The notes beneath the pieces are model-generated. The model saw only the letters and a list, made by a program, of their open reading frames with translations, made no database searches and was not told where the DNA came from. Source: an uncultured Flavobacterium sp. (GTDB lineage: Bacteria; Bacteroidota; Bacteroidia; Flavobacteriales; Flavobacteriaceae). Taken from it: DNA of 64,000 nt. The translations under genes were made by a program, and so were the position numbers. The first letter of the stretch is position 1; every line of letters begins with the position of its first letter. This document shows positions 7,719 through 52,471 of this stretch, in pieces. The stretch is taken from assembly GCF_963975515.1 (NCBI RefSeq), contig NZ_CAXBGY010000012.1, forward strand, positions 12,467-76,466, read 5' to 3'.

Positions 7719-9665
7719 TTACACGAGTTCGTCATCTTTAGATCTCGTGGCAACCATTTTTTGTTGGGGACAAAAAGGGTCATTATAATCTACATTCTGT
7801 TCATTACTTACTAATTGGTCAGGACTAGTGTTTACTAACATTATCCAAGTATCACCATAATATTTTCCGTTAACATTTGAATAATATAAATTTAAAGCAT
7901 TTGTCCAAGAATCATTTTTACTTACAAAAACATATCTGTAATTATTTTTTGGGTTGATAAAGAAATTAGCATCAATACCTAAACTTCTTAGTTTTGCAAC
8001 AAAACGAGTTGCATTTCTATGAACAGCAAACACATTTGCAATTACATAAAATCCACGTTGTTGATTATAAATTTCAACCATTGGTCCTGGAATTGCGGTG
8101 ATTTTTTGTTTTTGTCCATATTGATTTTGTGCAACTTGACTCAATTTTTCGCTAATCATAACTGGATCAATCATTGTTGTGTTTGAGGCAACAACATCAT
8201 TGTTCTCGGTCTTAACTTTTGGGTGACTAACTACAACTTCTTTTTTTGGAGCTAAAACAACACTGTTTGTGTTTTCTTTTGGACTGTTATCGACTTTAAC
8301 TGCAATTATTGTTTCTTTTTTGGTCGGCTCAATTGCTTTAACTTCTATTTTAGTTGTTTCAGCAACTATATTCTCTTTAGTTGGTATTTTAGTTTCTGAC
8401 TTTATTTCGTTTTTAACAATAGTTGTTGTTGTAGGTTTTGTATTGTCGGCAATAACTGTTTCTGTAACTATAGGAGTTGTAACAGATTCTTTAGTTTCTT
8501 CAGCTTCATTTGAAACAAACATAACTGGTTCTTTTTTAGCATCTTGAACCTCTACATTGAAAGCGTTAAAGAACATAAAGTATCTATCTCCTACTGTTTT
8601 AAGCTTTAAGGTTACATTATCCGTATTATTTTGAATAACAGAATTATCAGGATTTGCAATAGTTATTAAACTTGTGTCATAACCTAGGGTATTTTTACTG
8701 TTTGGGTTTCTGTCCGTAAAGTATTGGTCATTTATAATAATATTACTATTGAAAAAATTATTTTCTAATTTTAATGGTCCGCTTAATAATGTGAAAATTT
8801 CACTTAGTTGAGATTTTATTTGTAATTGGTCTCCAGCTAAATTATTATCCCCTTCTAAACCAGCACAAGCTAATTTAGCAAAAACATTTCCTTCAGGTAA
8901 AGTTTTAAATCCTGTAAATAATATTTCTGTGTCTTTATCTGTTACACCTGCAAAACCATCATATGAAGTTATGAATTTTGCTGTTTCGTTATCATCTTCA
9001 TAAACAAAAAACATTGTCCATCCACCTGAAACTCCACCTTCAACAACTCCTTGTGTTGCTTTTATGTTTGCAACTGTATATTCTCCAACAGGACTTCCAA
9101 GCTCTTTTACTAAATCGGTAATGTCAGCATAAACTGCATATGGAGCACTTTCGTCAAATCCTTTTTTATCTAAACCATCAAAAATTATATTTCCTTTTAT
9201 ATCTACATATTTAGATTCTCCAGGAAGTTTCAATTTAATTTGATCAAACTCTTCTCTATTTTTATCAAATGCTTTAAATTTGTTGCGTTTCTTTTTGATT
9301 CCACTATTGTATTTATAAGTGGCAGACCAGTATAAACCAGCGTAAACTATTTTTTTATTTTCTTCATTTTCAAGATATAATGTTGCAGCACTAGAACTAA
9401 AAGTAGACATGTCACTATCAATATCAATATAAAACATTTCAAACTCGTCATTAAGTTTGGCTGTTTTAGTTGCGTTCATGTATGGCATGTTTGGATTATT
9501 TCCATAATCTTTTCTGTTCACAATATTGTTTGCTATAACAGTCATATCGCCTTTAACATAAGACTGATATCTTACTTTAAAAGGAACGGGTAATTGACCA
9601 TAAGAAAAAGATGTTGCAAAAAGGATTGCAACCATTAACCCTAATTTTGAAATTTTGCTTAACAT
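7719..9665 (-). CDS. Exported protein: SprB-N-terminal-like domain, Thr/Glu/Lys-rich linker and SPOR-like C-terminal domain
   Basis: Residues ~24-372 align by eye with the N-terminus of the 4674-aa protein (GDMTVIANNIVNR, AGLYWSATY, GGWT, LEGDN, RNPNSxNTLGxD). C-terminal GFYVIANVFAVHRNATRFVAKLRSLG is SPOR-like. No T9SS CTD. Confidence 0.8.
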   Translation of the reverse strand: MLSKISKLGLMVAILFATSFSYGQLPVPFKVRYQSYVKGDMTVIANNIVNRKDYGNNPNMPYMNATKTAKLNDEFEMFYIDIDSDMSTFSSSAATLYLENEENKKIVYAGLYWSATYKYNSGIKKKRNKFKAFDKNREEFDQIKLKLPGESKYVDIKGNIIFDGLDKKGFDESAPYAVYADITDLVKELGSPVGEYTVANIKATQGVVEGGVSGGWTMFFVYEDDNETAKFITSYDGFAGVTDKDTEILFTGFKTLPEGNVFAKLACAGLEGDNNLAGDQLQIKSQLSEIFTLLSGPLKLENNFFNSNIIINDQYFTDRNPNSKNTLGYDTSLITIANPDNSVIQNNTDNVTLKLKTVGDRYFMFFNAFNVEVQDAKKEPVMFVSNEAEETKESVTTPIVTETVIADNTKPTTTTIVKNEIKSETKIPTKENIVAETTKIEVKAIEPTKKETIIAVKVDNSPKENTNSVVLAPKKEVVVSHPKVKTENNDVVASNTTMIDPVMISEKLSQVAQNQYGQKQKITAIPGPMVEIYNQQRGFYVIANVFAVHRNATRFVAKLRSLGIDANFFINPKNNYRYVFVSKNDSWTNALNLYYSNVNGKYYGDTWIMLVNTSPDQLVSNEQNVDYNDPFCPQQKMVATRSKDDELV

Positions 9666-9734
9666 AATACTTAGTTTTACAATTATTATACTAACGAATC
9701 ATTAACAATTATTTTTATGTACATTTACTTTTTT

Positions 9735-9864
9735 TGTTAGTAAGTGCAATCAATTTGATGATAAAAGAACTGTTTTTAAATCTTTTACTAAACTATTAAG
9801 AATAGTGATTGGTTTATCAACAATGGTAAACGACTTATTAACAATTTTTATTGTGTTATCAACA
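9735..9864. promoter_or_regulatory. Phased array of DnaA-box-like 9-mers
   Basis: TTATCAACA 9814, TTATTAACA 9835 and TTATCAACA 9856 (21-bp period); reverse-oriented variants TGTTAGTAA 9735 and TGATGATAA 9756 (also 21 bp apart). Confidence 0.6.
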
Positions 9865-9889
9865 AGATATAAAATTTAGAACTTATACA

Positions 9890-11029
9890 ATGTTTAAAAA
9901 TGTAATTGGAAATAAAAAAACGGTAGATTACTTAACTTCAAGTGTTGATAGTAGTAGACTTGCACACGCTCAGCTATTTGTTGGTCCTGAAGGAATTGGT
10001 TTGTTACAAATTGCAATATCCTATGCAAAATACATACTGTGTAATGGCAAGAATGTTGAAAACTCTGATTATGAAAACTGTCAAAACAAGGTCATTCAAC
10101 AGTCACATCCTGACATTCACTATGCGTTTCCTGTTACTTCAACCGAAAGTGTAAAAAGTCATCCTGTTAGTGATAATTTCCTAAAAGAATGGAAAGAATT
10201 CGTTAATCAACAACCTTTTGGAAGTCTTCAAGATTGGTATACACATTTGGGTGTGGAAAAAAAACAAGGGCAAATCGGGGTAGATGAGGCTTTAGAGATT
10301 GTGAAAAAGCTATCTTTAAAGTCATATGAAGGTGGTTATAAGATTATGATAATTTGGATGGCTGATAAAATGAATACAGCAACTTCTAACAAAATTCTTA
10401 AAATTTTAGAAGAGCCTCCACAAAAAACAATCTTTTTATTAATTACCGAAAATATTGAAGAAATCATCTCAACTATAACTTCTCGTTGCCAAATTATTGA
10501 GTTTAAAAAGCCTGAACAACAAGAAATTGAAGATTTATTAAAAACAAAAGGGGTTTCTGATGCTATTGCAAAGAAATATGCACATTTAGCACAAGGAGAC
10601 ATTAATAAAGCCCTAAAATTAGCCAATAATGAAAAAGATGATAGGTTATTTGAAGAGTGGTTTGTTAAATGGGTAAGATTTGCCTTTAAAGCAAAAGGAA
10701 ATGCTTCTTCTATTTTGGATTTAATTAGTTGGAGTGAAGAAGTGGCAAGCTACGGAAGAGAGGTTCAGAAGCAATTTTTACATTATTGCATTGAATTCTT
10801 TAGACAAGCTATGTTGGAGAATTACACAGCTGAAGATTTGGTCTATTTAGATGAAGGTTTAGACGGTTTTGAGTTGAAAAAATTTGCTCCATTTGTAGAT
10901 GGTGGTAACATAAATGAAATTTTTAAAGAAATTTCAGAGGCAATTTACCATATTGAACGAAATGGAAATGGTAAAATCATATTAACTGATTTATCTATTA
11001 AATTAACTCGCTTAATTCATAAAAAATAG
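9890..11029 (+). CDS. holB: DNA polymerase III subunit delta'
   Basis: RLAHAQLFVGPEG, HPDIHYAFP, KILKILEEPP and TITSRCQ; ATG 9890 preferred to the TTG at 9851. Confidence 0.9.
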   Translation: MFKNVIGNKKTVDYLTSSVDSSRLAHAQLFVGPEGIGLLQIAISYAKYILCNGKNVENSDYENCQNKVIQQSHPDIHYAFPVTSTESVKSHPVSDNFLKEWKEFVNQQPFGSLQDWYTHLGVEKKQGQIGVDEALEIVKKLSLKSYEGGYKIMIIWMADKMNTATSNKILKILEEPPQKTIFLLITENIEEIISTITSRCQIIEFKKPEQQEIEDLLKTKGVSDAIAKKYAHLAQGDINKALKLANNEKDDRLFEEWFVKWVRFAFKAKGNASSILDLISWSEEVASYGREVQKQFLHYCIEFFRQAMLENYTAEDLVYLDEGLDGFELKKFAPFVDGGNINEIFKEISEAIYHIERNGNGKIILTDLSIKLTRLIHKK

Positions 11030-15122: not shown

Positions 15123-15138
15123 TGTTTCACGTGAAACA
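15123..15138. promoter_or_regulatory. parS: parS site (ParB binding)
   Basis: TGTTTCACGTGAAACA, a perfect match to the canonical bacterial parS palindrome. Confidence 0.9.
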
Positions 15139-17080: not shown

Positions 17081-17096
17081 TGTTCCACGTGAAACA
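17081..17096. promoter_or_regulatory. parS: parS site abutting the mnmG start codon
   Basis: TGTTCCACGTGAAACA, the Bacillus-type consensus variant. Confidence 0.88.
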
Positions 17097-17118: not shown

Positions 17119-17541
17119 TTATTGTTGTTCCACGTGGAACAAAGCAATTTTCTCATCTTCTTTTTGTCGCATTATTAGTGCTTCGTTATCTGTTTTATCT
17201 TTATAGCCACAGTAGTGTAACACACCGTGAGATAATACTCTTTTGATTTCGTTTTCAAAAGGAACATTGAACTCAATTGCATTTTCAGCAACTCTTTCAG
17301 TAGATATAAAAATATCACCTTGAATTAAGTCGCCAACAGAATAATCAAAACTTATAATATCTGTATAAGTATCATGATTAAGATACTCATTGTTGATGTT
17401 TATTAAATATTCATCATCACAAAAAATGTAATTTATTTCACCTTCTGATTTGTTTTCTGATTGGACAATTCTTGATATCCAATCTTGATATATTGATTCA
17501 TCCTCTAAAAGGAAATCATTTTCATAGTTAAATGTAATCAT
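17119..17541 (-). CDS. ybeY: rRNA maturation RNase YbeY
   Basis: INNEYLNHDTYTDIISF, GDIFIS and HGVLHYCGYKD (H-x3-H-x5 zinc motif). Confidence 0.97.
   Translation of the reverse strand: MITFNYENDFLLEDESIYQDWISRIVQSENKSEGEINYIFCDDEYLININNEYLNHDTYTDIISFDYSVGDLIQGDIFISTERVAENAIEFNVPFENEIKRVLSHGVLHYCGYKDKTDNEALIMRQKEDEKIALFHVEQQ
17126..17141. promoter_or_regulatory. parS: parS site inside the 3' end of ybeY
   Basis: TGTTCCACGTGGAACA, a perfect palindrome. Confidence 0.88.
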
Positions 17542-25859: not shown

Positions 25860-25918
25860 TTATCAACAATAAATGTTTATAAAAAAAACTTGGTTGTTAA
25901 TAAAATTTTATATATTTG
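25860..25918 (+). promoter_or_regulatory. sprC-operon promoter with DnaA-box-like 9-mers
   Basis: TTATCAACA 25860; TGTTTATAA 25874 and TGTTAATAA 25895 (21 bp apart); -7 element TATATTTG at 25911-25918. Confidence 0.65.
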
Positions 25919-43575: not shown

Positions 43576-44529
43576 ATGAAAAATATTTTTAAAATTTTAG
43601 TTAGTTTAATCATGGTTAACTCTTTTGCACAAGAGTTAACCATACCAACTTACACACAATATTTAGGAGATAATCCTTATGTTATTTCTCCTGCTTATGC
43701 CGGAATTGGAGATAATATCAAAATTAGGGTAAACGGTTTAACACAATGGGTTGGATTAAAAGATGCTCCAGATAATCAATCATTGGCTGTTGATGGTCGT
43801 TTAGGTCAACGTTCTGGAATTGGTGCTTTTATTTACAATGACAAAAACGGAAACACTTTTCAAAAAGGTGGAAAAATATCCTTTGCACATCACTTAATTC
43901 TTGATTATTATGAAAACAGATACATATCATTTGGTATGTCTTTTATAATGAATCAGTTTTATATTGATAGAACGCAATTTGATCCTTCTTACGATCCTAT
44001 TGTAACAAACAATAGAGATTTAAACAATTATAATATTGATGTAGGATTTTTATACAGACAACAAGGTTTTTATTTAGCGGCAAATGTTTCTAATTTATTA
44101 AACAAAAACACCGATAAGTTCTTAATAAAGGAACCAAATATATTACGTAATTTTTCTGCTTACACGGGTTATAAAATAAAGTCAAGCAATAATAGTGATG
44201 TAGAATATGAACCATCAATCTTTTATCAATATTATCAAAGTGATAAACGTTCGAGTACAGATGTGAATGTAAAGGTTCGTTTTATGGATTATGAAGATTA
44301 TTATTGGGTAGGAATTTCGTATCGTTTCTTAAATGATCAATTATTTCAACCTTTAAATATTGGTCCAATGGCTGGATTAAAAAAGAATAATTTTTACTTT
44401 GCTTATTCGTACCAATATACAACAAATGCACTTTCTGCTTTTAATTCTGGAACACATATGGTAACTTTGGGCTATGATATTTTCCAAGGATTAAGTAATT
44501 GTCCTTGTACAAGTAATGAAATAGACTAA
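43576..44529 (+). CDS. sprF: PorP/SprF-family T9SS membrane protein
   Basis: YLGDNPYVISPAYAG, QWVGLKDAP, EPSIFYQ, YWVGISYR and SGTHMVTLGY; directly after sprB. Confidence 0.88.
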   Translation: MKNIFKILVSLIMVNSFAQELTIPTYTQYLGDNPYVISPAYAGIGDNIKIRVNGLTQWVGLKDAPDNQSLAVDGRLGQRSGIGAFIYNDKNGNTFQKGGKISFAHHLILDYYENRYISFGMSFIMNQFYIDRTQFDPSYDPIVTNNRDLNNYNIDVGFLYRQQGFYLAANVSNLLNKNTDKFLIKEPNILRNFSAYTGYKIKSSNNSDVEYEPSIFYQYYQSDKRSSTDVNVKVRFMDYEDYYWVGISYRFLNDQLFQPLNIGPMAGLKKNNFYFAYSYQYTTNALSAFNSGTHMVTLGYDIFQGLSNCPCTSNEID

Positions 44530-51744: not shown

Positions 51745-52471
51745 ATTCTTTTTCTTAATAAAGTTTAAAAGTACGAATTAGTATTAAGATTATAGAATTA
51801 AGTATTAAGATTTATTATAATGATAACATTTTTAATTTTTAGTTATCTTTAAAATTCAAAGTTTAATTTTAAAATTTAGAAGTTTTCAACATATATTAAA
51901 AACAACAAAAATATTTTTAATTAATTTTAAATTAATGGTGGTTATGATAGCTTGTTAATAGTTACTATAAAATTTTAAAAAACACATTGGATTTTTAGTT
52001 TGTATAATTTATACACATTAATTAACAATGTTATGAAATTGTAAAGTCCTAAATTTGAACTTATTTTTAGTTTTTATTAACAGTTGTTAACAACCAAAAA
52101 AAGGTAATTTTCCTTGATAAGTTTTTTTAAAATTTATGTTGATAAGTGTGTTTTTAATGCTTATAAATTTTCAAAAAATAATCGAAACTTTAATAGGATT
52201 TTAAAATGCAGTTTTGGATTAGATAAAATATCTATACAATGCTAAAAAACTTCTAAAAAACTATCTTAATTTATTAACAATTGATGTTAAATTAACATTA
52301 ACTGATTATCAAGTAGTTGTAAAATTCTATTAACAATGCTTTTTTTGATAATTTTAATTAACTGTAAATCAGTAATCTATAAAAAAAAGTAAGAAAAGAT
52401 GTTTTCTATTTACTTTATAATTCTGCTTTAACTAACTTTGTATCAAACATACACACTAAAAATAATACTAA
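51745..52471. other. 727-bp AT-rich divergent intergenic region rich in DnaA-box-like 9-mers; oriC candidate
   Basis: TTATACACA 52009, TTATTAACA 52074 and 52271, TGTTGATAA 52137, plus near matches at 51953, 52085, 52158, 52306 and 52327. Confidence 0.45.
52433..52440 (+). promoter_or_regulatory. -7 promoter element for rpiB
   Basis: TAACTTTG, 31 nt before the ATG. Confidence 0.65.

Follow-up and report, generated by a model that had tools for sequence, protein, structure and literature searches.

A phased array of predicted DnaA boxes in the spacer between holB and a SprB-head paralog of an uncultured Flavobacterium

The short spacer that separates holB from a divergently oriented SprB-head paralog carries an array of 9-bp boxes of the type TTATYAACA, and the array is non-random. 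With moderate confidence, we read it as a cooperative array of predicted DnaA sites that would control holB and titrate DnaA near oriC. Judged from comparative sequence evidence, it would most likely couple both holB and the availability of free DnaA to replication initiation. The window analyzed here is a stretch of 64,000 nucleotides (contig C12:12467-76466) from a genome of 3.19 Mb with 30% GC, distributed over 22 contigs and 91% coding. Positions are those of the window unless a contig is named, and the features are collected in Table 1.

The first-pass annotation had described three boxes at an exact 21-bp period and an opposed pair, all in the divergent spacer, and each of these sites was recovered. 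On the + strand, TTATCAACA (9814-9822), TTATTAACA (9835-9843) and again TTATCAACA (9856-9864) follow one another at exactly 21 bp, each with an A directly 3' of it, while TGTTAGTAA (9735-9743) and TGATGATAA (9756-9764) are found on the - strand, 21 bp apart and with one mismatch each. All five boxes lie inside the 224 bp between the ORF of the SprB-head paralog (7719-9665, -) and the ATG of holB at 9890, the last one (b3) ending 25 bp before this ATG. We have found two sites beyond those of the earlier note. One is a degenerate fourth box in phase with the others (b0), within a block invariant across a clade of four species; the other is a copy of the b2 unit (9693-9720), 136 bp from that unit and 35-45 bp from the ATG of the 648-aa ORF. 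A repeat search returned three 30-nt copies at 21-bp spacing from 9794 (family D1). The b-boxes are oriented towards holB and the opposed boxes towards the 648-aa ORF, and the mirror pairs o1/b2 and o2/b1 have their symmetry centre at position 9789.5. Three exact and four weaker boxes are thereby gathered within 166 bp of intergenic DNA, outside oriC and beside a replication gene. The Rfam scan of the spacer gave no match (the best, Staphylococcus-1, reached 21.7 bits against a threshold of 87.7), and a sigma-70 promoter scan gave no more matches than in shuffled sequence, the sigma-70 model not being applicable to Bacteroidetes.

Table 1. Features of the holB spacer, its flanking genes and the probable replication origin, in window coordinates.
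Feature	Position	Strand	Remarks
Box b1, TTATCAACA followed by A	9814..9823	+	In the four-species clade position 3 alone varies, A to G
Box b2, TTATTAACA followed by A, 21 bp past b1	9835..9844	+	Clade variation at position 3 alone
Box b3, TTATCAACA followed by A, 21 bp past b2	9856..9865	+	Positions 3 and 5 variable in the clade
In-phase fourth box b0, CTATTAAGA, 21 bp 5' of b1	9793..9801	+	Degenerate, two mismatches, weak
28-nt copy of the b2 unit, 82% identical	9693..9720	+	Repeat family D2; carries TCATTAACA at 9699-9707
Opposed box o1, TTACTAACA, one mismatch	9735..9743	-	With its flanks mirrors b2 (inverted repeat I3, 12 nt at 92%)
Opposed box o2, TTATCATCA, one mismatch, 21 bp from o1	9756..9764	-	Mirrors b1 (inverted repeat I4, 11 nt at 91%)
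Invariant 29-nt block (four species), at the symmetry centre of the divergent box sets	9774..9802		From the map of variable columns
holB, DNA polymerase III delta-prime, clamp loader	9890..11029	+	Pfam PF13177 DNA_pol3_delta2, E 2.7e-41
648-aa SprB-head paralog, divergent neighbour	7719..9665	-	Residues ~5-380 match giant SprB-like N-termini
rnr-rpiB spacer, probable oriC, 727 bp, AT-rich	51745..52471		GC-skew minimum and conserved boxes

In the whole genome, 266 exact boxes were counted, which is about the expectation from composition. The window holds 22 of them against 5.96 expected, a number reached by no shuffle. Under random placement, 0.044 pairs at 19-22 bp on one strand and 1.4e-5 triples with equal spacing would be expected over the genome. 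The genome-wide spacing scan that had been proposed as a check bore the phasing out: once position 3 is relaxed, 7 pairs fall into the 19-22-bp range of periods, all of them intergenic, versus 0 for the reversed motif. Exact boxes are also found more often between genes than the reversed control (59/266 versus 37/334, P = 3e-4), and the densest cluster of sites with one mismatch or less in the genome is the holB spacer itself, with 7 in 250 bp. The opposed pair is weaker than the exact triple, since one-mismatch sites occur about twice per kb; for a 21-bp pair of such boxes, the expectation in this spacer is approximately 4e-4. The boxes of the array are separated by stretches of 11-12 nt that are unrelated to each other, and the units have only the 10-mers in common, so the boxes are not the product of a recent tandem duplication.

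The 648-aa ORF has no match in Pfam or NCBIfam. Its first ~380 aa match the head regions of giant SprB-like proteins, among them the 4674-aa ORF of the window, and on account of this N-terminal match the label of SprB-head paralog, already given by the earlier note, holds. Array and synteny are common only to three close species (G239, G043 and G094), where the ORF is 94, 92 and 86% identical, respectively. Conservation in relatives, another of the proposed checks, is split: the array is kept in this four-species clade and is missing at holB in 23 other species of the genus, which makes it a clade-specific gain. Across the four genomes, 19.6% of the spacer columns are variable, compared with 44-51% at third codon positions. 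Inside the boxes, variation is confined to position 3 (A, G or T) and position 5 (C or T). The most variable stretch of the spacer comes after b1, and the sequence following b2, TTTTTATTGTG, is invariant. In other phyla, too, position 3 is where accepted DnaA boxes diverge (TTATCCACA, TTTTCCACA, TTGTCCACA).

In the 23 other species, holB has a canonical TAnnTTTG promoter, with the -7 element TATCTTTG placed 4-5 nt before the ATG. The clade is devoid of this genus-wide promoter (TTTTAG...TATCTTTG plus ATG; window 9866-9889 compared with L003-L026) and has kept a remnant of it, a AAAATTTAG piece that now stands 11 nt from the holB ATG. No convincing TAnnTTTG -7 element could be assigned for either holB or the 648-aa ORF. 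From these alignments we infer that the array replaced the ancestral holB promoter in the clade.

Plotted along contig C12, the cumulative GC skew forms a V whose lowest point, at 64219 (window 51753), falls in the 727-bp spacer flanked by rnr (RNase R, -) and rpiB (+). Eight species of the genus, with rpiB proteins 75-80% identical, can be aligned over this spacer, which contains more than 10 boxes of the TTATYAACA type as well as two AT-rich direct repeats of ~20 bp beside rnr. Its conserved repeated element is TTATYAACA with close variants (TGTTRATAA, CTATTAACA, TTGTCAACA). The canonical box TTATACACA is not conserved there in the relatives aligned, and a single conserved site, GTTTTGGATTAC, is canonical-like, with 7/9 positions. 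We consider the rnr-rpiB spacer the probable oriC. The dnaA gene is on another contig (C15), and in Bacteroidetes oriC is usually far from dnaA (PMC4755523). To be the repeated conserved element of the origin is the usual origin criterion, so the TTATYAACA boxes are most likely the predicted DnaA boxes of this lineage. They match the canonical TTATNCACA at 8/9 positions, the difference being C to A at position 6, in agreement with the single mismatch pointed out by the first-pass annotation.

The holB array is 42 kb from the probable oriC. That the array could itself be an origin, one of the options raised earlier, finds no place here: the skew minimum is at window 51753 and not at 9.8 kb, the conserved box-rich spacer is at 51.7-52.5 kb, and an array with no GC-skew switch that is missing from 23 species of the genus was rejected as chromosomal origin. 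The parS palindrome (TGTTNCACGTGAAACA, up to one mismatch) occurs three times, at 15123-15138, 17081-17096 and 17126-17141, where chance would give none, and these sites mark the origin-proximal domain.

Phased boxes are also found at other genes within the order. Searching 41 relatives for two boxes 1-31 bp apart, with the reversed motif as control, we obtained 52 pairs versus 22, with peaks at 20-21 bp (20 pairs) and 12-13 bp (12 pairs). The 20-21-bp pairs are located in the fmt-hup spacer, ~105 bp upstream of hup (HU), in 15 genomes from six Flavobacteriales families: this genome (C15:42608-42636), eight other species of the genus, and G366, G027, G029, G034, G035 and G038 (relatives at L090-L103, L158-L160 and L179). 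In these hup pairs the boxes are invariant and the sequence between them is free. Between the accA terminator and dnaB, four genomes (G016, G019, G021 and G237) have an array made of a box, a variant box 21 bp on and, after 14-15 bp, another box; G022 has a box pair, and this genome a degenerate one, TTGTTAACA followed 20 bp on by TTACTAACA, the same variant that forms o1 (C16:~44090-44120). The dnaB promoters show a TAnnTTAG variant of the -7 element and appear almost leaderless (C16:~44090-44120; L089, L092, L098-L100). The 12-13-bp pairs are in the divergent spacer of dprA and an HU-CCDC81/SPOR gene.

Three boxes at 19-23-bp periods were likewise searched for in 301 genomes of the genus, and 8 such triples were found versus 1 in the reversed control. 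Four of them are the holB clade, and the remaining intergenic ones are upstream of dnaG in G308 and of dnaB in G237. The triples of G122 and G151 were set aside as a coding coincidence, as they fall within the coding sequence of waaA (INN..FINN..LLT). At hup, dnaB and dnaG, as at holB, it is the strand running into the downstream gene that reads 5'-TTATYAACA-3'. No clear boxes are present upstream of either dnaA or dnaG in this genome.

Over 61 Bacteroidota genomes, TTATYAACA pairs number 27 versus 8 in the control and canonical TTATYCACA pairs 28 versus 2. Canonical pairs are absent from the seven Flavobacteriales genomes sampled and from G344 (family f20). In families f32 and f24 they show the same 20-22-bp phasing, as in TTATTCACA-N11-TTATCCACA. 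Those of f32 (TTATTCACA-N11/13-TTATCCACA) lie upstream of gyrB and parA (L168, L171, L172, L174), and none is beside HU or dnaB; in f24, similar pairs at contig ends come before an apparent rRNA-operon promoter. Upstream of parA, G344 carries a YAACA pair. We do not claim strict site orthology at parA, as the direction of the pair is opposite in f32 and f20. This genome has a palindromic double box, TTGTTAACAA, at C3:212439-212448, 62 bp upstream of parA (soj).

The spelling of the box goes along with residues of DnaA itself. Domain IV of the DnaA of this genome (C15; L001 925-2514), aligned to E. coli 1J1V, keeps R399, D433, H434 and H439, and has Ala in place of P423 and T435. Among 55 genomes, the lineages with only YAACA boxes have Ala423 and Ala435 (f1, f4, f5, f6, f11, f12 and f15) or Ser423 and Ala435 (f20), while the other lineages have Lys423 with Ser or Thr435 and use YCACA or both. 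The Flavobacteriales families without Ala435 (f7, f10 and f14) are also without exact YAACA pairs. Counted as YAACA/canonical, the pairs are 12/0 with Ala435 versus 15/28 with Ser/Thr435 (Fisher P = 4e-5, for genomes that are not phylogenetically independent). The helix that recognizes TnCACA starts with residue 435, and in E. coli the T435M substitution eliminates binding to the box (PMC5742627). This residue is not the sole determinant, since both box types are found in Ser435 lineages. We regard this tracking of DnaA recognition residues by box spelling as the strongest argument for DnaA being the probable reader of the boxes.

Several characterized systems offer points of comparison. In Thermoanaerobacter tengcongensis, the DnaA-box consensus is TTATCNACA, to which the box of the array is equal, and DnaA shifts an oligonucleotide containing TGTTGATAA; TTATCAACA is a genuine DnaA box there (PMC1888806; for the oriC oligonucleotides, PMC2887958). 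At least two neighboring boxes are needed by that protein, which is cooperative across gaps of 3 bp and 25 bp (PMC1888806). The organism belongs to another phylum, however, and position 6 is free there, whereas it is fixed as A here. Bacillus subtilis also has intergenic clusters of DnaA boxes outside oriC and near the origin, some of which regulate neighboring genes and which together restrain initiation (PMC3245932); those boxes are canonical and irregularly spaced, unlike the head-to-tail boxes with A at position 6 and strict 21-bp phasing described here.

ChIP-seq in E. coli presents DnaA as a transcription factor at genes of replication, nucleotide synthesis and repair, acting through same-orientation box pairs, for which a gap of 2-3 bp is needed and one extra base pair disrupts binding (PMC11317965). 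The pairs at 12-13 bp in the dprA spacer resemble this double box with its 2-3-bp gap (PMC11317965). The holB array shares the common orientation, but it does not have the short gap. Its boxes are 12 bp apart, and the gaps at holB, hup and dnaB are 11-12 bp (20-21-bp period), one turn more than the 11-12-bp period of E. coli. Given that the 20-21-bp period recurs at hup and dnaB, the binding mode, if the protein is DnaA, differs from that of E. coli.

A clamp-loader subunit is also encoded by dnaX. Borrelia burgdorferi DnaA is reported to help coordinate expression of the dnaX-ebfC operon (PMC9879097); the subunit, the organism and the site architecture are different from ours. The datA and DARS loci of E. 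coli are, like the array, non-origin clusters of boxes in a defined orientation, and they govern the availability or the nucleotide state of DnaA; they need IHF or Fis sites and have a specific box geometry (PMC5742627), whereas the holB array overlaps a promoter region.

The earlier note had offered a cooperative DnaA array for holB control and/or titration as one possibility, and this is the reading now favored by the oriC boxes, the pairs at hup and dnaB, their canonical counterparts and the co-variation with domain IV. DnaA would bind b1-b3 cooperatively, together with the weaker b0, o1, o2 and 9699 sites. As 21 bp correspond to two helical turns, the bound molecules would lie on one face of the DNA and would be able to cooperate. 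Their occupancy, probably in the ATP form, would modulate holB transcription, and at high occupancy the core promoter of holB would be occluded. Repression by promoter occlusion is slightly preferred over activation, because only 25 bp separate the end of b3 from the ATG and the canonical -7 element is gone, but the sign of regulation is a guess since no canonical Bacteroidetes -7 element is assignable for holB. The two weak opposed boxes would mirror the array towards the divergent gene. Located 42 kb from oriC, the array would also add to origin-proximal titration of DnaA, a process described for E. coli and B. subtilis (PMC12371093; PMC3245932). What speaks against DnaA is the 12-bp gap, which would mean a binding mode other than the one known in E. 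coli. Further points on this side are the restriction of the array to one clade, the lack of clear boxes upstream of this genome's dnaA and dnaG, the use of both box types in Ser435 lineages, the phased pair near a LytTR regulator gene, and the boxes at adhesin and surface-protein genes.

More tentatively, the boxes could reflect a shift in DnaA specificity (C to A at position 6, via Ala423/Ala435) combined with a two-turn regulon that includes SprB-type adhesin genes and with a bidirectional holB/SprB-head switch, a proposal that we find possible and rather doubtful. In such a regulon, hup, dnaB, dprA, holB and dnaG as well as SprB-type gliding-adhesin genes would be under DnaA, and the mirrored box sets would act as a bidirectional switch coupling holB and the SprB-head paralog to the replication cycle.

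Boxes do occur near surface-protein genes. The SprB-head paralogs of G110 and G274 (L071, L073) have two exact TGTTAATAAC boxes each, at most 330 bp upstream and at conserved positions, and further boxes are found upstream of a sprC-like operon and glnS (25860-25903), of gltX and of several giant surface-protein genes. Those at adhesin genes could be a consequence of the origin proximity of the sprB locus, chance occurrences in long AT-rich spacers, or real control. Elsewhere in the genome, four TGTTAATAAC boxes are located between convergent ORFs at C15:46108-46209; just downstream there is a -7-like element, TACATTTG, followed ~130 nt further by a strong terminator hairpin, and this may be a small RNA or peptide gene under TTATYAACA-type boxes. 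A phased pair, TTATTAACA-N11-TTGTTAACA, was found at C6:121164-121192 (L104), 140 bp 5' of a regulator of 328 aa with receiver and LytTR domains, with a third box after the glyS terminator. A pair of TGTTAATAA boxes with a 22-bp period (C5:174537-174567) lies just 3' of a gene of the gyrase/topoisomerase IV subunit A family (PF00521), ~1 kb from the cumulative GC-skew maximum of contig C5, possibly the terminus region.

Other explanations of the array have to be weighed against cooperative control of holB by DnaA. datA promotes DnaA-ATP hydrolysis and DARS promotes nucleotide exchange, and an array that binds DnaA with no promoter role, as a pure titration site or as an element of this kind copied early near oriC, is in our opinion unlikely, though less so than the alternatives that follow. 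It would account well for the genome's densest cluster of sites with one mismatch or less (7 in 250 bp), for the position 42 kb from oriC in a window with 22 boxes versus 6 expected, and for the mirror symmetry of the opposed box sets, which recalls DARS and oriC sub-complexes; accumulation of boxes near the origin and DnaA-box clusters of B. subtilis are known too (PMC12371093; PMC3245932). On the other hand, the array abuts the start codon of holB in place of the canonical promoter, the equivalent phased arrays elsewhere are always in promoter regions of replication genes, and a core element of the DnaA cycle would be expected to be widespread and not limited to a small clade. We give still less credit to another widely conserved, CtrA-like regulator that would occupy oriC and control both replication and surface adhesin genes, which we consider improbable. 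The two-turn phasing, unusual for DnaA, would suit it, as would the boxes upstream of the SprB-head paralogs of G110 and G274, the sprC-like operon, giant surface proteins, gltX, glnS and prfC. Nonetheless, oriC would then be left without a repeated DnaA box, one conserved site reaching 7/9 of the canonical positions; no candidate protein is known; the box type co-varies with the recognition residues of DnaA itself; and canonical DnaA boxes are phased alike in other families.

The binding sites of AgrA, ComE and PlnC are 9-bp direct repeats with 12-bp spacers, and a 21-bp period is classic for LytTR-family response regulators, a family also named in the first-pass annotation. The array has the identical period, the GTTNAT core of LytTR sites can be read in the reverse complement, TGTTRATAA, and the gene of a LytTR response regulator (C6:121332) has one phased pair 140 bp upstream. 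The resemblance is in geometry only, with no link to oriC, and co-occurrence tells against it: G034 keeps the hup pair in a genome without any LytTR domain, while the C6 regulator (L104) has no orthologue in 16 other genera and is also missing in G016, G021 and G022, which keep the hup and dnaB arrays. Such a regulator would also leave the oriC boxes, the 12-13-bp pairs and the canonical-box counterparts unexplained. We consider this reading largely refuted and its probability very low. Equally hard to credit is the view that the array has no function and is left over from an ancient 21-bp tandem duplication in AT-rich spacer DNA. The spacer is indeed AT-rich throughout, and 136 bp from the b2 unit there is a 28-nt copy of it, but the spacers between units of the array are unrelated and their likeness stops at the 10-mers, the boxes persist across four species among which 44-51% of synonymous-site columns are variable, and the phasing is met again, independently, at hup, dnaB and dnaG.

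Clusters of DnaA boxes and promoters controlled by DnaA are well known in Proteobacteria and Firmicutes. To our knowledge, the control of replication has hardly been studied in Bacteroidota, where origins are still predicted with the E. coli box, and the wider pattern of box and phasing in Flavobacteriales has not been described. The comparisons reported here lead to four testable statements: that the DnaA box of Flavobacteriales is TTATYAACA; that this spelling co-varies with two residues of the DnaA recognition surface; that DnaA boxes of the phylum often form same-orientation pairs or arrays two helical turns apart, unlike the 2-3-bp gap of E. coli; and that they serve a small conserved regulon (hup, dnaB and dprA) with lineage-specific recruits such as holB. 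If confirmed, they would improve the prediction of origins and regulons for a large phylum and would offer structural studies of DnaA domain IV a naturally occurring switch in specificity.
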